Positions 30,708-64,000 are shown, counted from the stretch's first letter. The stretch is 64,000 nucleotides of DNA from Ruminococcus sp. (GCA_021770655.1 JAETQO010000018.1:1305-65304), one strand, 5' to 3'. Program-made: numbers and translations. The notes: generated by a model not told the origin, from the sequence alone.

Positions 30708-30734
30708 TGCAAAATATTTTTATATAGAGATAAG

Positions 30735-30768
30735 CGGCACAGTGACAGACACTGTGCCGGCTTTTTTG
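30735..30768 (+). terminator. Intrinsic terminator after the HTH-Dfx gene
   Basis: 10-bp stem CGGCACAGTG/CACTGTGCCG, then GCTTTTTTG. Confidence 0.8.
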
Positions 30769-31192
30769 TTGATTGCTTTAGCGTAACAAAACCGCCGGTT
30801 CAAGCCACCATGATTCATCAGATAAATGTGCTATAGATTAAGCTTTGTGAAATTATCTTTAATTGACAACTCGTTGCATTCAGATTATGTTTGGAGTAAG
30901 TCCAGTATACAGATGAGCAGATCAAGAAATACAAACCGAAGATGATTTTGATTACAAACGCATTGGTATAATCATCTTTGGGAAACTCTGGATAGGTCTA
31001 TTTGAATTATGAGAGATGACAGTATATTGTCTTATATTTTAAAAATATGTAAAATAATGTATGTGTTTTTATGTAATAAATTAGAGTAATTTCATCTTAT
31101 CAGCTATTAAAAAATTTAATATTAAAAATTATTTATTAAGTTAATAGTGTTTTACCGTGGGCTATTAAGTTTTGATTACTTGAATTTTTGAG

Positions 31193-31954: not shown

Positions 31955-32004
31955 TATTGTAGATATTTTACTATTAAGATATTATTAACTGGAGGGGTTG
32001 TAAA

Positions 32005-32937: not shown

Positions 32938-32965
32938 TTCTTATTGAGTTAGGGGCTAATTTTTT

Positions 32966-33793: not shown

Positions 33794-33808
33794 CAGGAGT
33801 GTTTGTTG

Positions 33809-34639: not shown

Positions 34640-34704
34640 TTTGCAAATTTAATAAGTTATAAGCATTTTCTTTAGTCATATTTATTAGGAGTATTGTAAT
34701 TAAT

Positions 34705-39160: not shown

Positions 39161-39248
39161 TGAGAATTTATGGAATAAGGTTTTGGATATGTCGGATTGT
39201 AATTTAAACCGATGTGTCAATTACACAAACCTTGAGGAAGGAATAATT

Positions 39249-41660: not shown

Positions 41661-41672
41661 ATTGGAGGAATT

Positions 41673-42659: not shown

Positions 42660-42678
42660 TGTAAAGGTAGATGTTATT

Positions 42679-44013
42679 ATGAACATAGAGAATATACTGA
42701 AAAAAATTGACAGATTAAATAACTCAATAAAAGTAGGCATATCAAAGATACCATTTAATGAATGTAATTTATGGATGTATAATGAAGAACTCGGTGAGAT
42801 TTGTAATCAGACAAGAAGTTTTTTTCAAATTAAGGGTTTGATTAAGAATAACAAGAATGAGAATATTATAGAGCAACCCATTATCATTCAGAATGAAATT
42901 GGTTATCTCGGTATAATCCGTAAAAAGATCAATGGTGAATTTCATTATCTTATGCAGTACAAGATTGAACCGGGAAATATAAATAAAATTCAGATTTCCC
43001 CTACTATTCAAGCAACAAAGAGTAACTTCACGCAGAAACACGGTGGAAAGAGACCAGCATATTTGGACTATTTTGTCAATGCATATAAGTATAAAATAAT
43101 TGTAGATCAAATCCAGTCAGAACAGTCTTCGAGATTCTTGGGAAAGCGAAATAGAAACATAATTATTGAGCTTGATGAAAACGAATATGTTGAAGTGCTT
43201 CCTAGTCATGAATGGATGACATTAAATCAAATCAAGGCACTTATGACTTTTGACAATTTGGTTAATATGGATACACGTACAGTATTATCCTGTTTACCGT
43301 TATCGATAATAACTTATTCTAGCAGTAATCTTAATAATTTTGAGTCGCAATTCAATGATAAAGCATTGTTTAGATCTATTACAGCGGGATGTGGAAAAAA
43401 TCTCTTGCCCGATATTTATCAGTATATAAATAATTATAAAATGTTTGATGAAAGTGAAACAAAACTGATACCGTTATTTAATTTGACAAGTTGGCATATG
43501 CAAAACAACGAATTTGTATGTGATAATCCGTATAGTTTTAAAATTGTTTTTTGTAATATTGAAATTGAGGGAAGAGAGGTCAAACAATGGTGTCAGCCTT
43601 TGTTTGAGGCAACTGGAATTGCAACTTTTGGACTTTTTACTTGTATTGATAATGGTGTGAGAATGTTTTTGATAAGATGTTGTCCCGAAATTGGCTGTTT
43701 TGACAAAATTGAAATTGGTCCTAGTGTTCAGCGTGAATACACTTCATTGGAAGAAAAGAATTCAGTAGATTTGCTGTTTGATAAAAAGGTTAAAGAAAAG
43801 TCTGGAATTATGTTTGATACGCTTCTTTCTGAAGAGGGCGGACGCTTTTACCAGGAGCAGAATCGTAATGTAATTATTGAAATTGAAAAAAATGAAATTC
43901 AATTGCCAGACGGATATTTTTGGTGTGATTATAAAACGCTTAATATTCTTGTTCAAGTTAATAATACGCTTAATATTCAACTTAGAAATCTTTTATCAGT
44001 ATTGGAGTTTTAA
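42679..44013 (+). CDS. NDP-hexose 2,3-dehydratase
   Basis: QPIIIQNEIGYLGII...YKIEPGNINKIQISPTIQATKSNFTQKHGG...DQIQSEQSSRFLGKRNRNIII, duplicated in the second half (EEGGRFYQEQNRNVIIE). The ATG at 42679 follows the upstream stop at 42659. Confidence 0.85.
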   Translation: MNIENILKKIDRLNNSIKVGISKIPFNECNLWMYNEELGEICNQTRSFFQIKGLIKNNKNENIIEQPIIIQNEIGYLGIIRKKINGEFHYLMQYKIEPGNINKIQISPTIQATKSNFTQKHGGKRPAYLDYFVNAYKYKIIVDQIQSEQSSRFLGKRNRNIIIELDENEYVEVLPSHEWMTLNQIKALMTFDNLVNMDTRTVLSCLPLSIITYSSSNLNNFESQFNDKALFRSITAGCGKNLLPDIYQYINNYKMFDESETKLIPLFNLTSWHMQNNEFVCDNPYSFKIVFCNIEIEGREVKQWCQPLFEATGIATFGLFTCIDNGVRMFLIRCCPEIGCFDKIEIGPSVQREYTSLEEKNSVDLLFDKKVKEKSGIMFDTLLSEEGGRFYQEQNRNVIIEIEKNEIQLPDGYFWCDYKTLNILVQVNNTLNIQLRNLLSVLEF

Positions 44014-44016
44014 TAT

Positions 44017-45030
44017 ATGGATAAAATTAGGATAGGAATCATATGTCCCTCGGAGATTGCATTCAGACGTTTTATGCCAGCAATTACGAAATGCACGGAT
44101 TTTGATTATGTTGGAGTTGCTGTACCTCAAGCGGATGAATGGGGAGGTGCTTTTTCAAATGAAACAAGGGAAATCGAATTGTCAAAGGCTAAAGATTTTG
44201 TTGCAAGTTATGGTGGTAAGATCTTTGCAAGCTATAATGAGTTAATAGAAAGCAATGAAATTGATGCTGTTTATCTTCCGTTGCCACCTTCACTTCATTA
44301 TAAATGGGGTAGAAAAGTTCTTGAAAACGGGAAACATCTTTTTGTTGAAAAGCCATCAACAACTTGCTATAAAGATACAGAGGAACTTGTGAAATTTGCT
44401 TTGGGGAAAGGACTTGCATTGCACGAGAATTATATGTTCCGGTTCCATAGTCAGATTGAGTACATAAAGGATTTTATTGAGAGTGGAAAAATAGGAGATA
44501 TTAGGTTATACAAAATTGCATTTGGATTTCCTAAAAGAGCGTCCAATGATTTTAGATATAACAAAATGTTGGGCGGGGGAGCCTTGCTTGATGCTGGTGG
44601 TTATACTTTCAGATTGGCATCTATTCTTTTAGGTGATACAGTAAAAGTTGTAACATCAAAATTAAATTATACAGATGAGTTTGATGTAGATTTGTTTGGA
44701 AGTGCTACTCTTGAAAATGCAGAGGGTCTTATCGCTCAGGTTTCGTTTGGTATGGATAATGCTTACAAATGTGAACTTGAGGTGTGGGGCAGTAAAGGTA
44801 CATTATTTACAAACCGTATATTGACTGCACCGGTAGGATTTGAGCCTATAATTGAATATAAAGATGGTAATAATCCTATTGAAAAAATAAGGTTGTCTGA
44901 AGATGATACATTTATGAAATCTATTATGTATTTTGAAAAATGCATATATGATCAGAAAATAAGAAACAAAAGTTATAATTCCATTTTAAAGCAAGCTGAA
45001 CTTGTTGAAAAGGTGAAAGGATGCAATTAG
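44017..45030 (+). CDS. Gfo/Idh/MocA oxidoreductase (candidate NDP-hexose 3-ketoreductase)
   Basis: IRIGIICPSEIAFRRFMPAI is a Rossmann N-terminus, followed by LFVEKP. Context immediately after the 2,3-dehydratase. Confidence 0.7.
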   Translation: MDKIRIGIICPSEIAFRRFMPAITKCTDFDYVGVAVPQADEWGGAFSNETREIELSKAKDFVASYGGKIFASYNELIESNEIDAVYLPLPPSLHYKWGRKVLENGKHLFVEKPSTTCYKDTEELVKFALGKGLALHENYMFRFHSQIEYIKDFIESGKIGDIRLYKIAFGFPKRASNDFRYNKMLGGGALLDAGGYTFRLASILLGDTVKVVTSKLNYTDEFDVDLFGSATLENAEGLIAQVSFGMDNAYKCELEVWGSKGTLFTNRILTAPVGFEPIIEYKDGNNPIEKIRLSEDDTFMKSIMYFEKCIYDQKIRNKSYNSILKQAELVEKVKGCN

Positions 45031-45031
45031 C

Positions 45032-45580
45032 ATGAAAGTTACATCATTAGAAATTCCTGAAGTAAAAGTAATAGAGCCGGATGTGTTCTCAGATTATAGA
45101 GGTTATTATATGGAATCTTATTCTCAGAGATCCTTGGCGAAATTAGGAATCAATGACATATTTGTTCAAGATAATCATTTTTATTCAATAAAAAAAGGAA
45201 CTATTAGAGGAATTCATTTTCAAAATAATCCTTATGCACAGTCAAAACTTTTAAGATGTACAAGAGGTGTTATCCTTGATGTTGCAGTAGATCTTCGAAG
45301 GAATTCGCCTACCTATAAAAAATATGTAATGGTAGAACTTTCGGCTGAAAATAAAAAGCAGATTTACATTCCTAAGGGATTTGGACACTGCGCAATGTCA
45401 TTGACAGATGACGTAGAAGGTCAATATAAGGTTGATGAGTTTTACTACCCTAAATATGATCGTGCAATAGCTTTTAATGATCCTGAGATAGGAATTGACT
45501 GGGGTACTGATCAATTTATAGTATCTGAAAAGGATAAAAAAGCTCCGTTGTTGAAAGACAGTGATGTTAATTTTTTATGA
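45032..45580 (+). CDS. dTDP-4-keto-6-deoxyhexose 3,5-epimerase (RmlC family)
   Basis: 182 aa. FSDYRGYYMESY...IRGIHFQ...KLLRCTRGVILDVAVDLR...IPKGFGHC. Confidence 0.88.
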   Translation: MKVTSLEIPEVKVIEPDVFSDYRGYYMESYSQRSLAKLGINDIFVQDNHFYSIKKGTIRGIHFQNNPYAQSKLLRCTRGVILDVAVDLRRNSPTYKKYVMVELSAENKKQIYIPKGFGHCAMSLTDDVEGQYKVDEFYYPKYDRAIAFNDPEIGIDWGTDQFIVSEKDKKAPLLKDSDVNFL

Positions 45581-45589
45581 GGTGAGTGT

Positions 45590-46492
45590 ATGCAGGTAGC
45601 GGTTGTAACGGGCGCTGGCGGCTTTATCGGGGGCGCTTTGACTCAAAAGCTTTTGTCAGATGGAATGAAGGTTTATGGTGTGGATATAAGTGCAGATTCT
45701 CTATTGCGTTTTAATTCGTATGATAATTTTGTTCCCGTGTGTATTAATCTTGAAAAAGAGAGCATATCAAGTTATTTAGATGAAAAATGTGATGTATTTT
45801 ATTATCTTGCTTGGGGTGGACAACTTGGAGGAAAGGATTTATCTGATGAAAATTTACAGGTAAAAAATATAATGACTGCTGTGAGAACTTGCCGTAGTAT
45901 GGTAAATTCATGTAACAAGTATATCTTTTGCAGTTCAAGTTATGAGTATATGAGAAGCTGTGAAAATGATGAGATTTATGTAAATATATATGGTATTGCC
46001 AAACGTTCAGCTGCTGAGATGTGTGCAGCTATCGCATTGCAGAATGGAATGAACTTTAATAAAGCTATTTTGACCAATACCTATGGTGTAGGAGATCGAT
46101 CTAAAAAAGCTGTTAATACAATAATTAATGCTATGAATAATAATATTTCGCTTACTTTGGTTGAGGGAAATAATAAAAATGATTGGGCTTATATTGATGA
46201 TACAGTTGATGGTTTGATCAATATTTTTAAAAAAGGTAAAAATCACAAAACTTATTATATAGGACATAGGGAGATATCTACCTTTAAAGAGAAAATATTG
46301 GCAATGCGTAGTTTACTGTGTCCGGAGAGAGAATTGATATTTGGAGGATATGTAGAAAATACATATGTCGATTATTCCTGTATTGATTTGGACGCGTTAT
46401 ATGATGATACGGGATTTGAATGTAAAACGGAATTTAATGAAAGTATAATAAAAACGTCTGAATGGTTAAAAAATAAAAAAGATAAGGTGTAA
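45590..46492 (+). CDS. NAD(P)-dependent SDR epimerase/reductase (candidate 4-ketoreductase)
   Basis: VAVVTGAGGFIGGAL glycine motif and YGIAK catalytic YxxxK. Confidence 0.7.
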   Translation: MQVAVVTGAGGFIGGALTQKLLSDGMKVYGVDISADSLLRFNSYDNFVPVCINLEKESISSYLDEKCDVFYYLAWGGQLGGKDLSDENLQVKNIMTAVRTCRSMVNSCNKYIFCSSSYEYMRSCENDEIYVNIYGIAKRSAAEMCAAIALQNGMNFNKAILTNTYGVGDRSKKAVNTIINAMNNNISLTLVEGNNKNDWAYIDDTVDGLINIFKKGKNHKTYYIGHREISTFKEKILAMRSLLCPERELIFGGYVENTYVDYSCIDLDALYDDTGFECKTEFNESIIKTSEWLKNKKDKV

Positions 46493-46493
46493 A

Positions 46494-47666
46494 ATGGATA
46501 AGATAATAATTGTTGGTTCTGGTTTTTCTGGAAGTATATTGGCAAGAAAGATTGCAGAAGAATTGAACAGAAAAGTTTTAATAGTAGAAAGAAGAAATCA
46601 TATTGCAGGTAATATGTTTGATGAATATGATGAAAATGGAATATTAATACAAAGATATGGCCCACATTTTATTAATACAAATAATTATGCTGTAATCAGA
46701 TTTTTGCTGAAATATTCAAAATTATTTAGGCATGATACGAAACTCCTTAGTTTTATTGATGGAAACTATGTTAGACTTCCATTTAATTTTAGAACAATGC
46801 AACAACTGGTGGGCGATGAAAAGTCAGAATATCTTTTGAAAAAAATGAGATCTGAGTATGTTGGGCGTGATAGGGTTCCGATATTCGAATTGTTGAATAA
46901 TGAAGATGAGTCAATAAGAGAATATGGTAAATTGTTGTTTGAAAAAGCATATAAGACATATACAGCAAAACAATGGGGGCTTCAACCAGAGGAAATTGAT
47001 AAAAGCGTTTTAGAACGAGTGCCAATGGCAATGAATTTCGATGAAAGATACCTCAATAAGGATTTTCAATATCTCCCTGAAAATGGTTATACTGAATTGT
47101 TTAAAAATTTATTAGAACATCCTAATATTGAAGTAAGACTTAATACAGATGCATTGCCCCACATTGAATTTGATGAAGATAACCATACTATTAAATATGA
47201 TGGGGAAAATGTTGAGCTGCTTGTTTTTACTGGTGCAATTGATGAACTTTTCAATTTAAAATATGGAAGACTTCCATATCGGTCTTTGGATATAAAGTAT
47301 GATTATTTTAATGAAGAAAAGATACTTCCCAGTGAAATAATATCATATCCTCAGGCAATTGGTTATACAAGAAAGACAGAATACAAGCAGATCACTCAAA
47401 ATGTTCCTAAGATTAATAAGACGGTTGTTGCAACTGAGTATCCGATTGAATACGATCCAGATAAAAATGTAGGGAATATACCATATTATCCTGTTTTAAC
47501 AGAGAATAGCAAAGTGGCTTATGAAAAATATTTTGCGGAATCGAAAAAATATGGTAATATTTTCCTATGCGGAAGATTAGCTGAGTTTAAATATTATAAT
47601 ATGGATATTTGTATCGAGCATGCATTAGATAAATTTGAAAAAATAAAACAAATACTGGAGGTTTAA
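46494..47666 (+). CDS. glf: UDP-galactopyranose mutase
   Basis: [17 protein letters not shown]...[29 protein letters not shown]...YTAKQWG. Confidence 0.9.
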
Positions 47667-47667
47667 T

Positions 47668-48540
47668 ATGAAAGGTATTATACTTGCTGGAGGAAAAGGT
47701 ACAAGACTTTATCCAAATACCATAGTGGTTAGCAAACAACTTTTGCCAATTTATGATAAGCCACTTATCTATTATCCATTATCTGTATTGCTCCTTGCTA
47801 ATATAAGAGATATTCTTATTATTTCTACACCGGAGGATACTCCTAATTATCAAAGACTTTTGGGAGATGGTTCAAGAATAGGAATACATATTGAGTATGC
47901 AATTCAAGATTGTCCCAAAGGTTTAGCTGATGCTTTTATTATTGGAGCAAATTTTATAGGTAATGACAGCGTATGTCTCGTTCTTGGAGATAATGTGTTT
48001 TATGGACAGCATTTTTCAGGAATATTACAGCAAGCCAGAAAACAGGCAGAAATAGGTGGAGCATCAATATTTGGTTATCCAGTAAAAAATCCAAGGGAAT
48101 TTGGTGTAGTTGAATTTGATAGCAATAATAAAGTTCTTTCTATAGAAGAAAAACCTGAAAATCCGAAATCTAATTATGCTGTTCCCGGACTTTATTTTTA
48201 TGATAACGATGTTGTGGAGATAGCAAAAAATGTTAAGCCTTCGGCTAGAGGAGAAATTGAAATTACATCAGTTAATAATGTATATCTCAAAAATAGTAAA
48301 TTAGACGTAGTACTAATGGGCAGGGGGATGGCATGGCTTGATACCGGATCTCCTAAGGGAATGCATAAAGCCGGATCTTTTGTAAAAACCGTTCAGGAAA
48401 TGCAGGGATTCTATATTTCATGTATTGAAGAAATTGCATGGAGAAGAGGCTTTATTTCAACAGAACAACTTCATGAAATTGGAGAAAATCTTAAAATGAC
48501 TGACTACGGAAAGTATATTTTATCTCTTAGGGAGGAATAA
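47668..48540 (+). CDS. rfbA: Glucose-1-phosphate thymidylyltransferase
   Basis: [16 protein letters not shown]...[20 protein letters not shown]. Confidence 0.93.
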
Positions 48541-48544
48541 TAAA

Positions 48545-49564
48545 ATGACAATCATAGTAACAGGTGGAGCAGGGTTTATTGGAAGTAATTTCATCTTCCA
48601 TATGCTTGAAAAATATCAAGACTATCGTATTATATGTCTTGATAAATTGACGTATGCTGGTAATCTTTCAACACTTAAAAATATAATGAACAATCGAAAT
48701 TTTCGATTTGTAAAGGCGGATATTTGCGACAGGGAGGCTGTTTACAAACTTTTTGAGGAAGAACATCCTGATGTTGTGGTGAATTTTGCCGCAGAGAGTC
48801 ATGTTGACCGTTCTATCGAAAATCCAGAGGTATTTCTTAAGACTAATATTTTGGGAACACAAACACTTATGGATGCATGTAGAAAATATGGGGTAGTTCG
48901 TTATCATCAGGTTTCAACAGATGAAGTGTATGGCGATTTACCACTTGATAGACCTGATCTTTTTTTTACAGAAACGACACCAATTCATACAAGTAGTCCA
49001 TATTCTGCCAGCAAAGCGTCTGCAGATCTTCTTGTTTTAGCTTATTATAGAACCTATGGTTTGCCAATAACGATTTCACGTTGTTCCAATAACTATGGTC
49101 CATATCATTTTCCCGAAAAACTTATTCCACTTATGATTGCAAATGCATTAAACGATAAACCGTTGCCTGTCTATGGTACCGGTGAAAATATTAGGGATTG
49201 GTTGTATGTAGAGGATCATTGTAAAGCTATTGATCTTATCATTCATAAGGGAACTGTGGGAGAAGTTTACAATATAGGTGGGCATAATGAAATGTCAAAC
49301 ATTGATATTGTAAAGCTTATTTGCAAGGAACTTGGTAAACCTGAAAGTCTAATAACTTATGTTACTGATAGAAAAGGTCATGATATGCGCTATGCGATTG
49401 ATCCTACGAAAATTCACAATGAACTTGGTTGGTTGCCTGAAACAAAATTTTCTGAAGGAATAAAGAAGACGATTCAGTGGTATTTAGAAAATACAGAGTG
49501 GTGGGAAACAATCATCAGTGGTGAGTATAAGAATTATTATGATAAGATGTATCATAATAGATAA
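48545..49564 (+). CDS. rfbB: dTDP-glucose 4,6-dehydratase
   Basis: IIVTGGAGFIGSNF...FAAESHVDRSI...YSASKASADLLV. Confidence 0.93.
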   Translation: MTIIVTGGAGFIGSNFIFHMLEKYQDYRIICLDKLTYAGNLSTLKNIMNNRNFRFVKADICDREAVYKLFEEEHPDVVVNFAAESHVDRSIENPEVFLKTNILGTQTLMDACRKYGVVRYHQVSTDEVYGDLPLDRPDLFFTETTPIHTSSPYSASKASADLLVLAYYRTYGLPITISRCSNNYGPYHFPEKLIPLMIANALNDKPLPVYGTGENIRDWLYVEDHCKAIDLIIHKGTVGEVYNIGGHNEMSNIDIVKLICKELGKPESLITYVTDRKGHDMRYAIDPTKIHNELGWLPETKFSEGIKKTIQWYLENTEWWETIISGEYKNYYDKMYHNR

Positions 49565-49743
49565 AAAGTATAAATATAAAGCATCGTGCGGTTTTGAATG
49601 AATTATTGAAGCGTCGTACAACATTGATAAAAAGTTTTCTTCCCCTGGAATCAAGTGAACAATTTTAGAAGCTAACAGAATTATTTCGATTTGATCTACT
49701 TTTTCACTATCAAATAAGATTCGAATTTATTGACAACAAAAAC

Positions 49744-49778
49744 CTCCGCAGTTTTTACTACGGAGATTTTTGTTTTTA
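49744..49778. terminator. Hairpin with flanking A/T runs between the convergent rfbB and 49828 ORF
   Basis: CTCCGCAG/CTACGGAG stem followed by TTTTTGTTTTT and preceded by ACAAAAA. Confidence 0.6.
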
Positions 49779-49827
49779 TTTGATTATTTTACTTTTTCGT
49801 TGTCACACTCTTAACAGCAGACCATTC

Positions 49828-50268
49828 TTACTTGCCCTCCACAATTTCTGGTTCACACATTATTTTAACGTTAACAGACCTTACTTCTTCCTTCTCACAC
49901 CAACCTAAATCAATAGAAAAAGCTTCGTTTATCATTTTTAATATTTCAGTTTGTTTTTCCCACAATTCATTTGGAATTGGAAGTGTCATTATATTCCAAG
50001 TGATATTAATCCCATCATCATAATTTCCAGTACTAGTTCTTACAACTTCTATACGTATCGTATAGCCATCCCACCAAAAATCGTGAAAATTCGGCATATC
50101 ATTAAATCCACCACCTATCCTAACTAAATATGCATTTCTATCCCTATCTGCACACCACTTTGTATCCTTTGACAAACTCAAAGAACCATTTCCCCAACAA
50201 TTTTTCAATCCCATAGATTTAAAAAACTCATAATCCTTTTCAGGAACTTTCTCAAAAACAAAAGCCAT
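49828..50268 (-). CDS. Hypothetical protein (146 aa), AT-rich, at the island edge
   Basis: The ATG at 50268 (MAFVFEK) lies 7 nt after GGAGG. No recognisable motifs. W-rich (WGNG, WWDGY, WNIM). Confidence 0.5.
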   Translation of the reverse strand: MAFVFEKVPEKDYEFFKSMGLKNCWGNGSLSLSKDTKWCADRDRNAYLVRIGGGFNDMPNFHDFWWDGYTIRIEVVRTSTGNYDDGINITWNIMTLPIPNELWEKQTEILKMINEAFSIDLGWCEKEEVRSVNVKIMCEPEIVEGK

Positions 50269-52026: not shown

Positions 52027-53532
52027 ATGAGTAAGGTAATAAATTTTAATGCAAGAGAGTTTAAGTTTGATAACACCTGCGACAATAATGTGGGTTCAAG
52101 AATTTTCGTGACAGACGCCTTGGGAGAGAATGTCGAAATTTACGAGATAGGCGACTGGGGCTGGGCGTGGACGCAGATATGCTGTGAAAAGGCGCTTGAA
52201 AAGAACACTGATTATGTGTTCAGATTTGCAATGACAGGCGGATATAACGATACCTGCGACGGTACGTCTCAGTTTGTGATAGTTCCCATTGAAAACGATG
52301 AACTTACCATGGACGATTGGGAAAACAGATATTCATACGATCTTTCGCAAAGCCAGTATAAGCCTGTGCTGAGCAAGCGCTGGGGCAACGGTATGCTGAG
52401 AGTGTATGAGATACCCTTCAATACCTATGAATGTGAAAAGTTCAGGTTCGTGTTTATTTCTCAGCACGTTGTGTCAAGACTGTTTCCTGTACGGGAGCTT
52501 ACGGCTTATACGGAGTTTGAGGATTACAGCTACCACGACTGGTACAATGAAAGATTCGGGCAGAAAAAGGGAAATAATTTCAACGGAGATATTAAAAGCT
52601 CAGTTCATGATTTTGTAAAAAGGACTGTAAGCAACGCTCTGAATAACGCTTTTGCTCAGGCAAGCGGAGAATTTAACGGCTGCGGCGACGGAATGAGCAT
52701 TGAGCATACAAATAAAAATATGAGCGGCAGTGATCTTTCCAATATTCTCAGGAACATGGGCGACGGCAGTCATATTAACCTTTCAAACTGCAATATCTCA
52801 GACGTGGAAGCGTTTCTCGACTGCGGAGGTCGATCCGACGGCTGTGATTTTGAAATGACCAACACAAATATAGGCGGCAGAGCGTTCTGCGGCGTACTTC
52901 GTAAAATAGGCGACGGCTGTAACGTTTATTTCTACAATACAAACATCACCTATACTGAAAAGAAATACGCAAAATCAGGAAAGCAGGCGGACGGCTGTAA
53001 TATTGAATTGCAAAACGTTGCTATTTCGGCAGGTGCATTTTCTGCGCTTATATCAAAGCTGGGAGACGGATGCGTACTTAATCTGAGCAATTCATACATC
53101 AAGGCGGACGATACCGACATAAGCTTTGGCAATCGTGCAGACGGAATTGTGATAAACCTCACCAAAACAAAAATACCGAACAGCATTTACAGCAGGCTCA
53201 ACGAAAAAACGGGCGACGGTTGTTGTATAAACGAAAACGGTCTGGAAATCTATTATGACGACGGACAGAATCAGTCTCAGAATGCTGAGCAAGAACAGAA
53301 AACAGTTGCCGAAGACGAGATACTCAGGCAGACTGCGGATCTGGTGGCAATAAGCGGTCCGTTAAATGCGGCATATGTTCAGCACAAGCTTGGATTGAAT
53401 TATATGCAGGCTAAAAACGCGTTGGACGAGCTTGTAAACCGAGGTGTATTAAGCTATCTTGACGGAGCGAACGAATATCTTTGCAACGTTTCGCCCGATG
53501 AAGTTAAAAACTTCTTTTTCGGTACAAACTAG
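52027..53532 (+). CDS. Hypothetical protein: N-terminal domain of unknown fold, about eight Cys-containing LRR-like repeats, and a C-terminal FtsK-gamma-like winged helix
   Basis: The ATG lies 8 nt after GGAGG. There are 25-aa repeats DGCxhxhxNxxI...GDGC (nt about 52681-53253). The C-terminus ILRQTADLVAISGPLNAAYVQHKLGLNYMQAKNALDELVNRGVL resembles the FtsK gamma domain. The frame stays open upstream to 51718. Confidence 0.7.
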   Translation: MSKVINFNAREFKFDNTCDNNVGSRIFVTDALGENVEIYEIGDWGWAWTQICCEKALEKNTDYVFRFAMTGGYNDTCDGTSQFVIVPIENDELTMDDWENRYSYDLSQSQYKPVLSKRWGNGMLRVYEIPFNTYECEKFRFVFISQHVVSRLFPVRELTAYTEFEDYSYHDWYNERFGQKKGNNFNGDIKSSVHDFVKRTVSNALNNAFAQASGEFNGCGDGMSIEHTNKNMSGSDLSNILRNMGDGSHINLSNCNISDVEAFLDCGGRSDGCDFEMTNTNIGGRAFCGVLRKIGDGCNVYFYNTNITYTEKKYAKSGKQADGCNIELQNVAISAGAFSALISKLGDGCVLNLSNSYIKADDTDISFGNRADGIVINLTKTKIPNSIYSRLNEKTGDGCCINENGLEIYYDDGQNQSQNAEQEQKTVAEDEILRQTADLVAISGPLNAAYVQHKLGLNYMQAKNALDELVNRGVLSYLDGANEYLCNVSPDEVKNFFFGTN

Positions 53533-55488: not shown

Positions 55489-55518
55489 CAATATAGATAA
55501 TGACAATTATCTATATTG
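55489..55518. repeat. Perfect 13-bp inverted repeat CAATATAGATAAT-GACA-ATTATCTATATTG at the left edge of the recombinase island
   Basis: Read directly from the sequence. Lies 16 nt beyond the stop of the minus-strand XRE gene. Confidence 0.6.
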
Positions 55519-55533
55519 GTACGGCGGAAGGAG

Positions 55534-55893
55534 TTAGGTATTTCTTTTTCGTAATAACAAATCCTTATTTTTGCGCAGACTCTTTTTCAGTTCGTTCGCC
55601 ATATCGAAAATCATATTTTTCTCGTAGTTACTGCAATCAGAAAATAATTCACGCAGTTCGGGAGCATAGTCACCGCTTTCTAGATTTCCACGCAGCAACT
55701 TATCAACAGTTACATTTAAAGTATTTGCAATTTTCACGATAGTTTCAAGACTTGCTTTACTTCTGCCAGTTTCAATGTGACTGATGTACGGAACTGATAA
55801 ATCGGTATATTCAGCCAAATCAGCTTGAGATAATCCTGTTGAAATTCTTTCAGCTTTGATTATTTTTCCCATTTTCTTGTAGTTCAAATCCAT
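55534..55893 (-). CDS. XRE-family HTH transcriptional regulator
   Basis: The ATG at 55893 (MDLNYKKMGKII) lies after GGAGGTG. HTH LSQADLAEYTDLSVPYISHIETGRS. Confidence 0.8.
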   Translation of the reverse strand: MDLNYKKMGKIIKAERISTGLSQADLAEYTDLSVPYISHIETGRSKASLETIVKIANTLNVTVDKLLRGNLESGDYAPELRELFSDCSNYEKNMIFDMANELKKSLRKNKDLLLRKRNT

Positions 55894-56045
55894 ATTTCTC
55901 ACCTCCAATCTGCACTTGCTGATGGAGCTGTTTTTGAAAAAACTTATTTTATAACCATAAGGATATGACTATACTTATAGTTAATTTTCTTTTCCTCAAA
56001 AAAGGTTTATAATGAATATACAATCCGATTTACGAGGTGAGATTT

Positions 56046-57917
56046 ATGCTTGAAAGCGAAGCGAATATTTCAAACAAAGAACTGCGACGCGCAAAAATCA
56101 GAGAACGATATAAAGGGTCAAACACAGAATTACTTGAAGTAATCCCCGGGAAGAAAGCTGCTGATTTTTACGATGATATTGCTCGACGTGTTGCGGTATA
56201 TGTAAGAGTTTCAACCGATAATTTACAACAAACCAGTTCTTATGAGCTTCAGAAAAACTATTATGAAGAAAAAGTAAGCAGAAATCCCAACTGGGCTTTA
56301 GTTGATATATACGCTGATGAAGGAATATCGGGTACTTCTTTGCAGCATCGTGATGCTTTTAATAGAATGATTGAGGACTGCAAAGCAGGAAAAATAGACA
56401 TGATAATAACCAAAAGCGTATCACGTTTTGCGAGAAATATTGTTGACTGTATAAGTATTGTTCGTCAGCTTTCCGCACTTAAAAATCCTGTCGGAGTAAG
56501 ATTTGAAACCGAGGGTATTTTCACATTGAATGACAATACAGAAATGAATCTCAGTTTTACGGCGACTATGGCACAAGAGGAGTCCCATATTAAAAGTTCA
56601 ATTATGAACGCTTCTATTGAAATGCGTTTTGGACGAGGAATTGTTTTGACACCGGTTCTTCTCGGCTATGACCACGATGAAGATGGAAAACTTACAATCA
56701 ACGAAAAAGAAGCTAAGACAGTTCGGCTCATATTCTTTATGTACCTGTACGGTTATTCCTGTAAGGAAATAGCAGACTTGTTGACTAAACTTGGCAGACA
56801 GACCAAGAAGGGGAATACAAAATGGAGTTCGGGAAGCGTTTTGGAGATACTCAGAAACGAGCGACATTGCGGAGAAATTCTTACCCGAAAAACATATACA
56901 CCAAGCTATTTAGACCATAAATCAAGAAAAAATCGTGGTGAGCGTTCACAGCACCGCTGGAAAGGTGAACATGAAGCCATAATTTCCAAAGACGATTTTA
57001 TTGCTGTACAGCACCTTATAAATAACGCAAAATACGGAAACAAAGGTATTCTGCCGGAACTGAAAATTATTCCCGAAGGCGCATTGAAAGGCTTTATATC
57101 CATAAATACGAGATGGGCTGGCTTTAAGGCTGATGATTATATCTACATTGCCAAGACTGTTTGTGATGGAGAGGATGCGGAAAACGACATTATAAAGATA
57201 GAAGTGCAGAGTGGAGATTTTGATTACAGAGGTTTTGAGATAGCAAGAGAGCAGTTTTTTAATAATTCCGATAGGCTGTCAATTACTTTTTCGCTGAAAT
57301 CAATGAAGTTCAGTTACAACTGCATCAAAAAGCTTTCGGATACTCAGTACATAGAATTACTTATTCACCCATTGAAAAAACTGTTGATAGTTAGAACTGC
57401 CGACAGCAAAAACAAGAACGCTATAAAATGGCTGTCATTGACCGCATATGGAGGATATATTTCACGTTCCGTATGTGGTACTGCATATCTCAAAACAATA
57501 TATGCGTTACTTGGTTGGGACGAAAATTGTAAATATCGAGTCCGAGGTATCCGAAAGCAAAATGATGATGAAAGTCTACTTATTTTCAGCCTTGAAGAAA
57601 CTGAGCTTTATTTATCAAAGGACAGAAAAGGAATTGCCGATGAGGGTGAAGCAGAAATAACATCTCTTGCCAAAACAGGGAAGTCCGTTATTGCATATCC
57701 TTCTGCTTGGGCAGATAATTTTGGCAGTAACTTTTACCATCACTCTCAGGCTGCGGAATTACAACGTATGAAAAAAGCAGCAGATTGGAGTTTAAGGCAA
57801 GAAGTAACCAGTTATCCAGATTATCTTGAACTTAACATTACCAGCCGTGATGAGGCAGCAAACAACATACGAACAATAATCAACGATATGAAAATGGAGG
57901 AAAATAATGATGGATAA
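56046..57917 (+). CDS. Large serine recombinase with a non-canonical C-terminal region (no zinc-ribbon Cys pairs)
   Basis: Resolvase catalytic domain VAVYVRVSTDNLQQTSSYELQ...ITKSVSRFARN. Recombinase domain (GYDHDEDGKLTINEKEAKTVRLIF...WSSGSVLEILRNERHCGE). An alternative GTG start lies at 56037. Confidence 0.85.
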   Translation: MLESEANISNKELRRAKIRERYKGSNTELLEVIPGKKAADFYDDIARRVAVYVRVSTDNLQQTSSYELQKNYYEEKVSRNPNWALVDIYADEGISGTSLQHRDAFNRMIEDCKAGKIDMIITKSVSRFARNIVDCISIVRQLSALKNPVGVRFETEGIFTLNDNTEMNLSFTATMAQEESHIKSSIMNASIEMRFGRGIVLTPVLLGYDHDEDGKLTINEKEAKTVRLIFFMYLYGYSCKEIADLLTKLGRQTKKGNTKWSSGSVLEILRNERHCGEILTRKTYTPSYLDHKSRKNRGERSQHRWKGEHEAIISKDDFIAVQHLINNAKYGNKGILPELKIIPEGALKGFISINTRWAGFKADDYIYIAKTVCDGEDAENDIIKIEVQSGDFDYRGFEIAREQFFNNSDRLSITFSLKSMKFSYNCIKKLSDTQYIELLIHPLKKLLIVRTADSKNKNAIKWLSLTAYGGYISRSVCGTAYLKTIYALLGWDENCKYRVRGIRKQNDDESLLIFSLEETELYLSKDRKGIADEGEAEITSLAKTGKSVIAYPSAWADNFGSNFYHHSQAAELQRMKKAADWSLRQEVTSYPDYLELNITSRDEAANNIRTIINDMKMEENNDG

Positions 57918-58605
57918 TTCTCGTTTTGCCACTTTACCAGCTATTCCACAGCTTCCCAATTATAATCCTGCTGTTGACAAAACTGATATTATTGAAGATA
58001 ACACTTTTAGCTATGACGGTTATCAAGTAGTGCGCAGTGAATTTTTTGCACATATTTCCGAGCCGTCTATCAGCTTTAATAATTGCAAGGTTACATTGAA
58101 TACGGCTTGCCTGAAAAAACTACCCGATGTTAGCTATATTCAATTCCTTGTTAACCCCGATACGAGAAAATTAGTAGTTCGTGCCTGTTCAGAAGATGAA
58201 AAAGACTCATTCTTATGGTGCAATGCCAAAAGGAAGCCAAGACAGATTACTTGTAGAATTTTCTTTGCGAAAATTGTCAATCTTATGCATTGGAATCCGC
58301 AGTACCGTTATAAAATGCTTGGCAAGATTATTAAAACAGGAACAGATTACCTGATAATTTTCGACCTCAATGCGACCGAAGTATATCAGCGCATAGTGAA
58401 AGAAGGAGAGAAACCCAAAGTATCACGTTCTCCGGTTTTCCCAAAGGATTGGCAAAACCAGTTCGGATTGCCTGTTGAAGAACATAAAAGGCTCTTGCAA
58501 ATCAACGTTTTTGAGGGCTATACGATGTTTGGTATAAAAAACGAGAAAAACAAAACAGAACAACTTAATACTTTTGAGGAGAATAAGGCAGAGGAGGCTT
58601 TATGA
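57907..58605 (+). CDS. Hypothetical protein, paralogue of the recombinase C-terminal third
   Basis: Residues about 35-205 align with recombinase residues about 395-575. Examples: FSYDGYQVVRSEFF vs FDYRGFEIAREQFF, YIQFLVNPDTRKLVVRAC vs YIELLIHPLKKLLIVRTA, YRYKMLGKII vs KYRVRGIRK. Overlaps the recombinase stop by 11 nt. Confidence 0.6.
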   Translation: MMDNSRFATLPAIPQLPNYNPAVDKTDIIEDNTFSYDGYQVVRSEFFAHISEPSISFNNCKVTLNTACLKKLPDVSYIQFLVNPDTRKLVVRACSEDEKDSFLWCNAKRKPRQITCRIFFAKIVNLMHWNPQYRYKMLGKIIKTGTDYLIIFDLNATEVYQRIVKEGEKPKVSRSPVFPKDWQNQFGLPVEEHKRLLQINVFEGYTMFGIKNEKNKTEQLNTFEENKAEEAL

Positions 58606-58606
58606 T

Positions 58607-58981
58607 ATGCAGGATAATATATCAGACAAACCCGTTGCAGTTATTGATTTTGCTAATAATCTGATACGAATACATAAAAAGACCATTCTTTCAATCGGCT
58701 CTCCCGAATATATCCTGCTGCTTATAAATCCTGAAAAGCTTACACTTGGTATAGTTGGATGTATCAAAGATGTTAGAGGATCACATTGTATTCGTTCCAG
58801 AAAAACACATTGTTATGAGCTTTACAGCAAATCTCTTGTAAGCACGATGAAAAAGACATTCCCTTATTGGGACAGCGAGAAAGGCTATCGGATGACAGGA
58901 GATTATATTTACAAGGAAGGGATTGCTCGTTTTAATTTATCTGAGTCCGTTCCGTTAAAAATTGATGAGGCAGATATATGA
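58607..58981 (+). CDS. Hypothetical protein, third shorter copy of the same domain
   Basis: The ATG at 58607 lies after GAGGAGG. NLIRIHKKTILSIGSPEYILLLINPEKLTLGIV...GYRMTGDYI follows the same pattern. Confidence 0.55.
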   Translation: MQDNISDKPVAVIDFANNLIRIHKKTILSIGSPEYILLLINPEKLTLGIVGCIKDVRGSHCIRSRKTHCYELYSKSLVSTMKKTFPYWDSEKGYRMTGDYIYKEGIARFNLSESVPLKIDEADI

Positions 58982-59937
58982 TTATGGAGCATAAATTTCC
59001 TAAATTACAGTGTAATTCCGAGTATAAACGTCTGTATCAATCTATGTCAGAGCAAGACTATAAGGCGCTTGAACAGAAAATTCTTACTCAAAATGATACA
59101 GTTACAATAAAAACATGGAATAGCATTGTTCTTTATGATTATGAAAAATATGAAATATGTCAGAAGCACCGAATACCATACATTATTTCACGAATATATC
59201 CTCGTAACAGTGAAGAAGCATTGTTGTGGCTGTGTAAAAATCAACTGGAACGGCTAGATTTGACGTTTGAAATGAAACGCTATTTAATAGGAAAACGCTT
59301 TTTATATGAAAGAATCCTTGGTGCTCACGATGTTGCTTTACGACGTGCGTCGAGCAGTGTTAGAGGTAGACCTAAAAATACGGAGTCAAAATATGACGAT
59401 TGCGCCATAAAGGTACAGGAACGCTTAGGAAAGGAATACAATCTTTCTCCTGCAACAATATGGAAATACAAGACGTTTGCAGAAGCAATTGATGTTATTT
59501 ATGATATTACAGAAGGCTTTTGCCATAAAATTCTATCAAATAATCTTAAATTGTCACAAGAAAATGTAATTGCTATATCACAACTGTCAGAAAAGGAAAT
59601 ACGTGATATGGCTGATTATATTTTGAATAAAAGGGTTGATTTTGCTTCATTTGCAAATTCACGAAGACTTATGTCAAAAGCAACAGCGGATAAGATAGAG
59701 GAAAATACGGTGGTAAAACGCACAACTATCAAGGATATGCCTAAATATGACCCCGATGCGGAAGCTGCAAGTCTTACACTCACAATCCCCTCGTGGATAA
59801 GTTTTATGAAGCGAGTATGTACCGCCTGTGATATGGGTAATGTCAGTCAAACCGCTAAAAACAGACTTTTCAATGAGCTTTACAGACTTGTTAATACCGT
59901 ATTTGATATGCTTGATATTTTGAAGGAGGAAAAATAG
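58978..59937 (+). CDS. Hypothetical protein with a degenerate ParB/Srx-like N-terminus and HTH-like middle region
   Basis: TIKTWNSIVLYDYEKYEICQKHRIPY resembles the ParB N-domain core but lacks the GxxR arginine motif. The central segment SPATIWKYKTFAEAI is HTH-like. Confidence 0.4.
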   Translation: MIMEHKFPKLQCNSEYKRLYQSMSEQDYKALEQKILTQNDTVTIKTWNSIVLYDYEKYEICQKHRIPYIISRIYPRNSEEALLWLCKNQLERLDLTFEMKRYLIGKRFLYERILGAHDVALRRASSSVRGRPKNTESKYDDCAIKVQERLGKEYNLSPATIWKYKTFAEAIDVIYDITEGFCHKILSNNLKLSQENVIAISQLSEKEIRDMADYILNKRVDFASFANSRRLMSKATADKIEENTVVKRTTIKDMPKYDPDAEAASLTLTIPSWISFMKRVCTACDMGNVSQTAKNRLFNELYRLVNTVFDMLDILKEEK

Positions 59938-60815
59938 TGGAAGATGTAGAATACAGTAAATTTGTCCCCAATGTTCACTTTGAGCAGATACCTATTAAAA
60001 ACCTTGTTTCCAATCAAGAGTACCAGCGTAATCTTTCTCAGAGTCATATTGAACGTGCTGCAAAGAATTTTGACCTTTATCAGATAAATCCCGTGAAAGT
60101 CAGTAGGCGTGATGGTATCAACTATGTATTTAATGGACAGCATACCATTGAAATTGTTGCAATGGTATCGGAGTCGAGAGATACGCCTGTGTGGTGTATG
60201 GTTTATGACGATATGGACTATAATATTGAAGCTGATGTTTTTGCTAATCAGCAGAAATATGTAAAAGCACTTGTACCTTATGAAATATATAAAGCAAACC
60301 TTGAAGCGGGAAATGATAAGCAGATAATGATAAAATCGTTGGTTGAGTCCTACGGTTTAAGTATTGGGCCTTCTAAATCGCAAGGTGTTATATGCGCTGT
60401 TTCTTCATTGGAGTACATTTTTGATACTTGGGGATTTCACGTTCTTGACAGGGCGCTTCGTTTGTGCATAGGAACGTGGGAAGGAGAAGCAAATTCCCTT
60501 ACTTCCAATATGCTTAAAGGAATTGCACGTCTTATTGTTGCATTTGATGAAAAGATGCGTGATGATATATTTAAGGAAAAAGTCGGCGCATTCTCAGCAA
60601 AAGAAATTATACGCACAGCCAAAGAACGTCGTGCAGGAGCAATTGGATATGCTGAAGCTATGCTTCTTGTCTATAACAAAAAAATGAAATATCCACTTCG
60701 ATGGAGTAATCTTTACAGTAATCAGAAAATCAAAAAAGCCATAGCGGCTATTGAAACGGACGTTATGGGAACTGAGGAAGAAGATGAAGATAATCCTTCT
60801 TTCTTTGATGAATAA
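59937..60815 (+). CDS. ParB-like / DGQHR-type (DndB-like) domain protein
   Basis: The GTG lies 7 nt after AAGGAGG. IPIKNLVSNQEYQRNLSQSHIERAAKNF, then INYVFNGQHTIEIV (an NGQHT variant of DGQHR). Confidence 0.55.
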   Translation: MEDVEYSKFVPNVHFEQIPIKNLVSNQEYQRNLSQSHIERAAKNFDLYQINPVKVSRRDGINYVFNGQHTIEIVAMVSESRDTPVWCMVYDDMDYNIEADVFANQQKYVKALVPYEIYKANLEAGNDKQIMIKSLVESYGLSIGPSKSQGVICAVSSLEYIFDTWGFHVLDRALRLCIGTWEGEANSLTSNMLKGIARLIVAFDEKMRDDIFKEKVGAFSAKEIIRTAKERRAGAIGYAEAMLLVYNKKMKYPLRWSNLYSNQKIKKAIAAIETDVMGTEEEDEDNPSFFDE

Positions 60816-61146
60816 TTGTCATAACTCCAGTTAAGTAATTATCAGAACTAGTATTCTTTTTAACTATATCGTTAATATACATTAAATGGATTGGCGCTTC
60901 TGCATCGTTATTAATAAAAGCCTTATACTATGTATGAGCGATTTAGCTATTGCATAGTTGAGGTGAACGGTATGATTGATAAATGAATATGACAAGATTT
61001 ATGCTGGCATTGGTCGCTGTATTACAACGGTACGTTTTATGATCCCGAGCACGGTATTATGAATGACTTCCCAAAATCAAACAGACGTTATTACTGGAGA
61101 TTATCTTCAATTTAAAAGCGAGTATTGAGTGTCCGCAGGAATGATT

Positions 61147-62693: not shown

Positions 62694-63577
62694 TGCGAAA
62701 GGAATGTTCAAAATGCCTGTCTCGATAATGAATTTGCTCAGGCAGTTCAAAGCAGAATAAGACGAAGAAGCAAACTATTATAAATGCTATTGCTGTTCCA
62801 ACAAAACTGAAAAAATATTTACATCCAATGTAGTAATTATTGTGTATGATAAAACTGTCAGAAAGCATATTGATACTATTCTAAGATTCTATTGGTTTCT
62901 CTGCTTTGTGAGATATCAACAAAATCGGCATTAAAACTTTGTGAAAGTTTTTTCATAACAAATTGGCAAGTTAAGAGCGAAATCTGCTCAAGGACTGCCG
63001 ATTTGTTTGACAATGTTCAATTGTTGAGGGTTCGAGTTCATTTTCAATTGAAAAGCATCTTGTGTTATACCATTAACGAAGAAATATGAAACAAACCGAA
63101 TAGGAAATAAAACAGCCAATGAGTAGTTTAATTAAGACTCATTGGTCGTTTTAATATTGACTTGTAATAATAGATTGCCATGTGGTTATTGACACCTGAG
63201 GGTGAGGCAACGACAGTGAAATTAATTTGTTTCTACATAGGTAACCGGATTGGGATTTCTCTTTTCGAGCTTAAAAGCGGGTGATTTTTTATTTCTTATA
63301 TGCAAATTTAAGTCTTGCTCCGGGGCAAGGCTTGGGTTTCTGCGGTTTATTTTGTTTGTTGTTAGTCGGCATATGATAATTTTATGGTTTTTGGTATGAA
63401 TTAAGGGGTTGTTGCTTGTGTGCAACAGCCCCAATTATTGTAATCCGAAAACGGCGATATTACGCTGTTTCCGAGAACTTAACTTGTGTTGTCTGCATAA
63501 AATAGATATTCGTATTTTGGCTCATACTAGTGTGCGTTGGATTCGTATATTACCTTGTTGCATTCTTTTTTTCGCAG

Positions 63578-63754
63578 TCAACATAATCCTTGCCACGCCA
63601 CGGAACTCAAGCTCAAATACCTTCTCATGTCTTGATAGGCTTTCTGTGCGAATCTGTCTATTTCACACCATCCGACGCATTCAAAGCCTCCGACTTTCTC
63701 AAAAGCGGAGCGGAATGCGCCGATTCCTGCAAACGCTTCAAAATATCTTATCAT
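63578..63754 (-). pseudogene. Truncated DNA (cytosine-5) methyltransferase, N-terminal 58 codons only
   Basis: Hand translation gives MIRYFEAFAGIGAFRSAFEKVGGFECVGWCEIDRFAQKAYQDMRRYLSLSSVAWQGLC-stop. Motif I (FxGxG) and the EID block are present; everything after is missing. Confidence 0.6.
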
Positions 63755-63787
63755 TTATCACCGATCCTTTCTTTTTTGCAATAAAAA

Positions 63788-63821
63788 AACGGCTAAGTCT
63801 TTTTTTCAAAACTTAACCGTT
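63788..63821. terminator. Hairpin between the convergent Dcm remnant region and the partial end ORF
   Basis: AACGGCTAAGT...ACTTAACCGTT stem (one G-U pair) with a T-rich loop/flank. Confidence 0.4.
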
Positions 63822-64000
63822 ACATTGACATATTCATTTCTTCGGATTCTTCAATATCCTCCGTTTCTGTAATTTCCTCTGTTTGCTCATCAGTCTGAGT
63901 CTGTTCCGGATCAATTTTATCGAACTGATCTACATCAGGAATAACGCCAAGCGTTCTTCTGTTGTCAAATTTGCAATGGAGAGTACCTGCATCGTCCACG
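63820..64000 (-). CDS. 3' end of an unidentified minus-strand gene running off the window (acidic C-terminal tail)
   Basis: The open frame to the window edge reads ...VDDAGTLHCKFDNRRTLGVIPDVDQFDKIDPEQTQTDEQTEEITETEDIEESEEMNMSM-stop. Confidence 0.35.
   Translation of the reverse strand, partial: VDDAGTLHCKFDNRRTLGVIPDVDQFDKIDPEQTQTDEQTEEITETEDIEESEEMNMSM

Follow-up and report, generated by a model that had tools for sequence, protein, structure and literature searches.

A large serine recombinase and the two small open reading frames (ORFs) directly downstream of it carry one shared domain in a 64,000-nt stretch of Ruminococcus sp. DNA (GCA_021770655.1 JAETQO010000018.1:1305-65304, one strand), which we refer to, at its full length, as the window. 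The recombinase (REC) and ORF2 through ORF5 form a tight five-gene operon, which is preceded by a divergent gene for a Cro/CI-type helix-turn-helix (HTH) regulator. The domain is found in the C-terminal region of REC, in ORF2, and in ORF3; judging from their sequences, ORF2 (the long version) and ORF3 (the short version) are ancient paralogs of the domain in REC. We see about an even chance that these genes form the core of a conserved module for integration that temperate phages and small integrative islands share, mainly in Bacillota, with REC as the integrase and ORF2 and ORF3 as its accessory subunits.

A serine-integrase module of this kind, in which the C-terminal domain is new and the partners are paralogous and co-translated, appears to be undescribed. 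The preliminary description of this DNA, which was made from the sequence without database searches, knew of no comparable case, and we likewise found no description of a recombinase with such a paralogous-domain arrangement in the libraries and papers searched, the latter by full text for Heliusvirales, DUF6551, zinc-ribbon-less serine recombinases, and paralogous directionality factors. Public records label these proteins "hypothetical protein" and, in one case, "integrase."

Large serine integrases count among the chief tools with which large DNA is put into genomes, and their site choice and one-way behavior are explained entirely by a zinc-ribbon/coiled-coil module together with a separate directionality factor. 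A natural family without that module poses the question of how site recognition and direction are set without a coiled coil. The family is abundant and occurs in Ca. Heliusvirales, a widespread order of human-gut phages, and its integration chemistry bears on lysogeny among Bacillota of the gut. Integrases with new properties might come from it, and its domain makes up a protein family still missing from Pfam.

One domain in three consecutive genes

At the level of single sequences, BLASTP aligned REC residues 390-589 with ORF2 residues 29-213 (24% identity, E = 5e-22) and ORF2 with ORF3 (E = 3e-6), while the match between REC and ORF3 (E = 0.013) is weak alone. For profile-profile comparison by hhalign, we built a family alignment for each segment from 166 related loci—86 retrieved via ORF2 and 80 viral contigs chosen independently via the REC C-terminal domain—which gave 61 to 71 distinct sequences per family. 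The ORF2 and REC C-terminal families matched over 187 columns (99.9% probability, E = 5.9e-34), the ORF2 and ORF3 families over 102 columns (98.1% probability, E = 1.2e-13), and the REC C-terminal and ORF3 families at 98.0% probability (E = 2.5e-13). Control profiles of ORF4 and ORF5 gave E > 0.19 against the three domain families. With the profile comparisons significant and the controls null, the proposal in the preliminary description that one domain is present three times in a row is borne out, and the matching motif blocks that it listed lie inside the aligned columns. The copies stand at about 22% identity to one another, as separate, long-diverged genes, and ORF3 is a minimal version with the core only (ORF2 residues 55-158).

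The residues conserved across the three families (F57, L81, W129, Y135, G139, and F152 in ORF2 numbering) are hydrophobic or glycine, which points to a common scaffold and not to a common active site. The three cores are all mildly basic (median isoelectric point 8.7-9.1), and the tails of REC and ORF2 are acidic. These two tails also include an invariant [FY]P..W...FG motif (residues 554-563 in REC, 178-187 in ORF2) that is absent from ORF3.

The shared domain matched no entry in Pfam, NCBIfam, PHROG, or PDB, and a search of PDB sequences with a profile of the domain yielded no match. A first structure model from 20 close ORF2 homologs was weak (predicted local distance difference test score, pLDDT, of 58.6), and a fold search with it was uninformative. 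A second model, made with AlphaFold2 from a mixed alignment of the three families (77 sequences), reached a pLDDT of ~90 over core residues 50-160. The modeled core has a beta-beta-alpha-beta-beta order, followed by a loop, a helix, and a long beta hairpin, and then a low-confidence tail. Foldseek found nothing significant in the PDB (best E = 0.0066, template modeling score, TM, ≤0.2); matches to predicted viral structures were borderline (E = 2e-4 to 1e-3, target TM 0.59-0.64) and were to small uncharacterized phage proteins, Gp105 of Lactococcus phage KSY1 and a protein of Bacillus phage Mgbh1.

Several candidate folds were considered and rejected. Sliding-clamp/PCNA and Bet v 1-like folds recurred as weak Foldseek matches, all with E > 0.006, TM < 0.2, and a root-mean-square deviation of 12-20 Å. 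The swapped-hairpin fold of AbrB/Abh/SpoVT/MazE, suggested by the beta-beta-alpha-beta-beta order, gave hhalign E values of ~0.24-0.35 with the three family profiles, using a hand-typed reference alignment, and no fold of this type was found by Foldseek in the PDB with either model.

The domain superfamily is large: an HMMER search with the mixed profile returned 3116 clusters at 50% identity, 429 of them below 1e-30. Free-standing proteins of 200-300 aa make up the majority, alongside a minority of recombinase fusions of ~620-630 aa. Among metagenomic proteins, P0310 (359 aa) has a resolvase-type catalytic domain fused directly to an ORF2-like domain, without a "Recombinase" domain; if P0310 is real, a small serine recombinase can have its DNA-binding part replaced by this domain. 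Two further proteins (P0166 and P0181) are apparent read-through fusions of the REC tail and ORF2. The metagenomic protein P0295 (834 aa) is tape-measure-like (PhageMin_Tail) and has a domain copy at residues 630-820, which is either a true fusion or a gene-calling artifact.

A serine recombinase without a zinc ribbon

REC is predicted to be a catalytically competent large serine recombinase. Its catalytic domain, with the conserved Ser nucleophile and Arg residues, matches Pfam Resolvase (PF00239, E = 2.4e-26), the next domain, after helix E, matches Pfam "Recombinase" (DNA-binding domain 1; PF07508, E = 2.8e-23), and the protein as a whole matches the PHROG integrase family (4.5e-86). The motifs YVRVS-TD, DEGISGTS..R, and KS-SRFAR are nearly invariant across 65 distinct relatives. 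Among solved structures, the catalytic domain is best matched by a recombinase from a C. difficile conjugative transposon (3g13, E = 5.5e-34), and TnpX (2mhc) also matches. In NCBIfam, the N-terminal half comes closest to CcrB (1.7e-29), with a score well short of the CcrB cut-off.

Beyond the "Recombinase" domain, REC has no recognizable Pfam, NCBIfam, or PHROG family. The preliminary description had seen no CxxC pairs after this domain; in fact, there is no CxxC motif anywhere in REC, and among the 65 family members no cysteine column past REC residue 335 is conserved in more than 65%, leaving no conserved cysteine pair. Neither Zn_ribbon_recom (PF13408) nor DUF4368, with which a comparison had been suggested, matches REC at E ≤ 0.1 or any of 16 family members at E ≤ 5, while the PF13408 model does match other recombinases in related loci. 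The shared domain is not a zinc-ribbon variant, and it sits in the position normally taken by the zinc-ribbon/coiled-coil module, which it appears to replace. The REC module most likely represents a new architectural class of large serine integrase.

Operon layout and translational coupling

The coordinates of the operon and its neighbors in the window are given in Table 1. The ORF2 ATG overlaps the 3' end of REC by 11 nt, the ORF3 ATG begins 1 nt past the ORF2 stop, the ORF4 ATG and the ORF3 stop overlap (ATGA), and so do the ORF5 GTG and the ORF4 stop, with a GGAGG-type ribosome-binding site (RBS) at each start from ORF2 to ORF5. These overlapping and abutting starts and stops bear out the translational coupling of the three copies noted earlier. 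Promoter-like sites within the operon are at chance level (24 found vs 21.8 expected), and we found no convincing internal terminator in the operon sequence.

Table 1. Features of the recombinase operon and its edges, in window coordinates (REC, ORF2, and ORF3 residues where stated)
Feature	Position	Strand	Evidence or remarks
Perfect 12-nt inverted repeat AATATAGATAAT-GACA-ATTATCTATATT	55490..55517	.	Left edge of conserved unit; sequence reading
Cro/CI-type HTH regulator	55534..55908	-	Pfam HTH_3, E = 3e-17; divergent from recombinase operon
REC, large serine recombinase, 626 aa (623 aa from ATG 56046)	56037..57917	+	Pfam, PHROG
REC parts			Catalytic 52-195, Recombinase 223-329, then linker, novel domain, acidic tail (residues)
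Domain copy 1, REC residues ~390-591	57204..57809	+	hhalign vs ORF2 family, E = 5.9e-34
ORF2, 232 aa	57907..58605	+	BLASTP 5e-22 vs REC
Domain copy 2, free-standing, ORF2 residues ~29-215	57991-58551	+	Best conserved of the three copies
ORF3, 124 aa, ATG at 58607	58607..58981	+	hhalign vs ORF2 and REC C-terminal domain
Domain copy 3, short, ORF3 residues ~13-115	58643-58951	+	Without [FY]P..W...FG tail
ORF4, 319 aa	58978..59937	+	Fixed operon member; always between ORF3 and ORF5
ORF5, 292 aa, DUF6551/ParB-fold, last operon gene	59937..60815	+	Pfam DUF6551, 1.8e-29
Second HTH gene, remnant (ATG ATT GAT AAA TGA)	60972..60986	+	Truncation point of the window's element

No family in Pfam, NCBIfam, PHROGs, or PADLOC matches ORF2, ORF3, or ORF4, and ORF4 has no PDB match either. 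ORF5 scores 103.4 bits against PF20188 (DUF6551), for which the curated cut-off is 26.8, and also matches a ParB-like PHROG (7.6e-11). ParB-CTPase-fold proteins fused to DUF6551 have been reported to bind CTP or ATP (bioRxiv 10.1101/2025.10.10.680097). By analogy with these proteins, ORF5 may add a nucleotide-dependent switch.

Recurrence and conservation of the gene order

ORF2 has >1000 relatives, with identities of 57-100%, and 223 species-representative genomes encode it. These genomes are mainly of Bacillota (Oscillospiraceae, Lachnospiraceae, Syntrophomonadaceae, and Selenomonadales), with a few metagenome-assembled genomes (MAGs) of Melainabacteria/Gastranaerophilales and one Acidobacteriota MAG. 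The order REC-ORF2-ORF3-ORF4-ORF5 is invariant in the 86 ORF2-selected loci wherever the contig allows, apart from a handful of decayed copies. In all 80 viral contigs, ORF2 lies directly 3' of REC, and at least 76 of the 80 have the full string. Over the whole set of 166 loci, an HTH gene on either strand is found directly upstream of REC in 154 (~93%), and ORF3 follows ORF2 in nearly every locus. The survey of recurrence that the preliminary description had called for thus shows a fixed gene set, with ORF2 and ORF3 present and intact, rather than absent or pseudogenized, in essentially all homologous loci.

Rates of divergence differ along the operon. Mean pairwise identity at equivalent core positions in 56 loci is 70% for ORF2, 47% for the REC copy, and 44% for ORF3; in the same loci, mean pairwise identity is 66% for ORF5 and 37% for ORF4.

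One decayed copy (L010:7625-11128) has REC split into two ORFs and has lost ORF3 and ORF4 by deletion, and an in-frame fusion joins ORF2 residues 1-194 to ORF5 residues 110-292. Matches of 817 nt that seemed to show an insertion in ORF2 were in fact joined alignments of ORF2 and ORF3.

Prophage context and insertion sites

The module is present in GenBank phages classified as Ca. Heliusvirales. In PV036411 and PV036424, both complete genomes, it lies in the lysogeny region and adjoins two canonical Zn-ribbon serine recombinases; all genes for replication, packaging, head, tail, and lysis are on the strand opposite to the module, and both phages carry their own DNA polymerase, helicase, and single-stranded DNA-binding protein (SSB). 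In the integrated form, the module is the outermost prophage block: host spore-germination (GerA) genes end ~120 bp from the HTH gene in loci L109 and L110, and the predicted provirus boundary falls within one gene of the module in dozens of IMG/VR contigs. The constant distance from the module to IMG/VR contig ends was rejected as a sign of termini, as these ends are provirus-prediction cuts at gene edges and not physical. Many loci, including the window, have no other recombinase nearby.

Insertion is best resolved in the L076 group. This element ends ~480 bp after ORF5, within a CpaF/TadA-like ATPase gene, in its conserved "...EVRGEEALDMLQA" region, and the insertion is at the identical point in 8 genomes from several genera, as read from one junction. 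Most of the 20-kb loci of this group are without any other intact recombinase gene. The pattern has the signature predicted for a site-specific integrase, with a phage attachment site (attP) probably adjoining the module. No complete phage of this type was found in the deposited-phage collection. The group (L071 and L076-L085; junction ~L076:13365) is a 96-99% identical element in Coprococcus, Blautia, Dorea, Muricoprocola, and other Lachnospiraceae; every copy lies in that CpaF/TadA-like ATPase gene, and the element carries an MmeI-type restriction-modification gene. NZ_JAOQKE010000003 and NZ_JAJBMO010000005 are among the records with an element of this type. These near-identical copies in different Lachnospiraceae genera suggest very recent cross-genus spread.

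Two other loci have distinctive neighbors. At L005:9826-14500, the module is beside Mu-type head genes (Portal_Mu, Phage_Mu_F), with type I restriction-modification and Schlafen/AlbA genes upstream, which suggests that the module is shared between unrelated phage backbones. At L107:1-12206, three tandem Zn-ribbon serine recombinase genes are directly upstream of the REC-ORF2-ORF3-ORF4 string, and further upstream are a second ORF4-like/DUF6551 pair and a PemK toxin.

Three other functions for the module were set aside. A Mu-like transposition module was suggested by the Mu-type head genes of L005 and by a c-ner-A-B-like layout; the enzyme is a serine recombinase and not a DDE transposase, and the site-specific insertion of the L076 lineage also speaks against transposition of this kind. 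Given the polymerase, helicase, and SSB that Heliusvirales phages themselves encode, the module is probably neither a Mu-like transposition unit nor a replicon, and a partition system is further disfavored by the lack of a ParA. As for a defense system, PADLOC models match none of REC and ORF2-ORF5, and the only matches are generic HTH matches.

Possible roles of ORF2 and ORF3

We favor a reading in which REC would be the site-specific integrase of the element, its zinc-ribbon/coiled-coil module being replaced by a basic, beta-rich domain of ~190 aa and then an acidic tail. ORF2 and ORF3, which would be made in fixed proportion to REC through translational coupling, may be obligate accessory subunits that assemble with the homologous domain of REC, with DNA adjacent to the attachment (att) sites, or with both. 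Together, REC, ORF2, and ORF3 would recognize sites and control synapsis, tasks that fall elsewhere to the zinc ribbon and coiled coil. With ORF2 and ORF3 coupled downstream of REC and with no internal terminator or above-chance promoter, a "recombinase alone" state should be hard to reach. Since REC would hardly be made without ORF2 and ORF3, an obligate accessory role fits better than that of a classical directionality factor. More tentatively, the system may be a multi-subunit serine integrase, in which a catalytic subunit lacking zinc ribbon and coiled coil works with two trans-acting paralogs of its C-terminal domain that set att recognition and directionality, possibly governed by ORF5. 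If true, one of the most prevalent human-gut phage lineages would exert control in a way that no serine recombinase is known to use.

Several points weigh against an integrase with two accessory subunits. Contact between REC and ORF2 or ORF3 is something that we infer. ORF2 is far more conserved than the REC copy, which is unexpected for a co-evolving partner or for a protein that binds element-specific att DNA, and which hints at a conserved partner elsewhere. Foldseek searches with both structure models found no characterized fold relative that would support DNA binding. In most Heliusvirales phages, the Zn-ribbon pair directly follows ORF5, and it could be this pair that supplies the real integrases, with REC in another role. 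For the element in the window, we were able to reconstruct neither of the att sites nor an empty site, and the copy is truncated on the right.

Alternatively, ORF2 and/or ORF3 could be directionality factors or inhibitors, as was first proposed, which would mimic the REC C-terminal domain and heterodimerize with it or compete for its DNA sites, thereby switching or blocking the reaction. Such mimicry would draw on the true homology of the copies to the enzyme's own domain and on the docking-like [FY]P..W...FG motif of REC and ORF2, through which both could compete for one site; REC also has no coiled coil for canonical factors to target, so some other control is needed. Yet directional integration needs the factor to be absent, and ORF2 and ORF3 are coupled to REC in an arrangement that is invariant in the 166 loci. 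The far higher conservation of ORF2 is likewise unlike co-evolution with the REC copy, and we consider this alternative unlikely.

The uneven rates of evolution, slow in ORF2 and ORF5 and fast in the REC copy, ORF3, and ORF4, suggest another partner for ORF2 and would also suit a second alternative. Here, ORF2-ORF5 would be a separate unit for lysogeny maintenance, silencing, or superinfection control, built around a ParB-fold nucleotide switch and merely co-transcribed with the integrase, and the shared domain would be a general DNA- or protein-binding module that REC and ORF2-ORF5 use independently. The huge superfamily with its mostly free-standing members, the location of the module in the lysogeny region opposite the lytic genes, and the persistence of intact copies in stand-alone remnants such as that of the window are all consistent with this. 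We nevertheless judge a separate unit improbable, as ORF2 comes directly after a REC-type recombinase in every locus examined, no defense-system model matches any of the five proteins, and clues to the function of ORF4 and ORF5 are limited to nucleotide binding by relatives.

It is quite unlikely that REC is not the integrase and that the adjacent Zn-ribbon pair integrates the element while REC and its paralogs carry out resolution, inversion, or mobilization of a 5.5-kb hitchhiking module: at least one Zn-ribbon recombinase gene (usually a pair) does come right after ORF5 in 62 of the 80 viral and ~25 of the 86 genome loci, and the module occurs in differing phage backgrounds (Heliusvirales and the phage with Mu-type head genes) and alone, like a portable cassette, but many elements without the pair are still integrated (site-specifically in the L076 group), the host junction is 0.5 kb from REC and >5 kb from the pair where both are present, and the surroundings of the module showed neither inverted segments nor res-like repeats.

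Comparison with known systems

REC has a resolvase-type catalytic domain (Ser nucleophile) and a "Recombinase" domain in common with the integrases of phiC31, Bxb1, TP901-1, A118/LI, and SPbeta (SprA), and like these canonical enzymes it is phage-encoded, located at the prophage edge, and linked to insertion into a conserved host gene. It differs in that the zinc ribbon and embedded coiled coil are absent, with the unrelated beta-rich domain of ~190 aa in their place, and in that it is co-translated with two domain paralogs, ORF4, and a ParB-fold protein. Canonical serine integrases act alone in integration (PMC3783163).

The TnpX/TndX type (Tn4451, Tn5397), which has a DUF4368 C-terminus, resembles REC in that both are large serine recombinases of Clostridia with a non-canonical C-terminal region. 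REC differs by having no DUF4368 match and by site-specific insertion in the one lineage examined. We know of no paralogous free-standing domain genes in Tn4451 or Tn5397. CcrA/CcrB and other tandem large serine recombinases likewise provide more than one serine-recombinase-related product per element; CcrA and CcrB are both full recombinases, whereas ORF2 and ORF3 are without a catalytic domain.

The directionality factors phiC31 gp3, Bxb1 gp47, and SPbeta SprB are, like ORF2 and ORF3, small phage proteins and are proposed to act on the integrase C-terminal region. The factors described so far (PMC12286644, PMC11722253) are not known to be homologous to a domain of their integrase and are usually encoded elsewhere and expressed separately. 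ORF2 and ORF3, in contrast, are paralogs of a domain that the enzyme itself carries, and their translation is coupled to that of REC.

As a functional precedent for accessory subunits that are obligate and co-expressed, the Int operon of the archaeal pleolipovirus SNJ2 comes closest: its integrase is co-transcribed with small Orf2 and Orf3, both required for integration (PMC5861418). The SNJ2 enzyme differs from REC in being an archaeal tyrosine recombinase. To our knowledge, paralogy of the SNJ2 accessory proteins to an integrase domain has not been reported.

In the case of Tn5 Inh, IS1 InsA, and IS911 OrfA, a free copy of the DNA-binding or multimerization part of a transposase regulates by competition or mixed oligomers. 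These regulators come from the same gene as the enzyme, via alternative starts or frameshifting, and the enzymes are DDE transposases. Their logic matches the mimic hypothesis for ORF2 and ORF3, which differ as separate, long-diverged genes (~22% identity) next to a serine recombinase.

The copy in the window and its surroundings

The copy in the window is a stand-alone, at least partly eroded element with six genes intact, as read from the sequence and its alignment to related loci. Samples in which this element is present include SRR32508458 and SRR26402690. It is flanked by an esterase-like gene on one side and by Crp and ferredoxin genes on the other, and the rest of the window is chromosome, with glycoside hydrolases, a SecY/RpoA ribosomal cluster, and a low-GC (guanine plus cytosine) glycan island. 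No phage structural, replication, or lysis genes were found adjoining the module; the flanks are chromosomal, and the gene that would come next in the element is truncated. The L106 module is likewise alone between ordinary genes, with no phage nearby.

The unit in the window is collinear with its closest relatives (L007 and L008) only over 55516-60997. On the right, homology stops at 60997, nine codons into the second HTH gene, which is intact in L007, L008, and L106; its promoter, RBS, and first codons still align to the intact gene of these loci. On the left, homology begins at 55516, in the loop of a terminator hairpin after the HTH gene of L007 and L008, and this start coincides with the 12-nt palindrome (Table 1), which could be host junction DNA, an att remnant, or an operator. 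A search for terminal inverted repeats or att arms found no 9-mer common to the two ends of the unit, and because the right end is a truncation scar, no terminal repeats are expected. In the search for an empty site, every contig with the exact flanking Crp or esterase proteins also holds the module. A sharp 6.4-kb unit common to L007 and L106 was considered as marking the element termini and rejected, as its boundaries are ends of coding sequences at 84% identity.

Elsewhere in the window, positions 30000-50000 form a polysaccharide-biosynthesis island of low GC (0.26-0.34 vs ~0.47 upstream) directly after the ribosomal/SecY/RpoA cluster, with genes for a Wzy-type ligase, a flippase, a phosphoenolpyruvate (PEP) mutase (phosphonate), and a nucleoside diphosphate (NDP)-hexose 2,3-dehydratase. 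Positions 52027-53532 encode a 501-aa protein with many "GDGC/ADGC/SDGC" repeats and a weak FtsK-gamma-like C-terminus, without a family match. The right end of the window, 63032-64000, reflects either a strain polymorphism or an assembly break: numerous metagenomic contigs stop at 63032, and from 63071 on L094 departs from the window sequence, with a trypsin-like gene in place. This end also includes the truncated N-terminus of a Dcm-type methyltransferase (63578-63754, minus strand).

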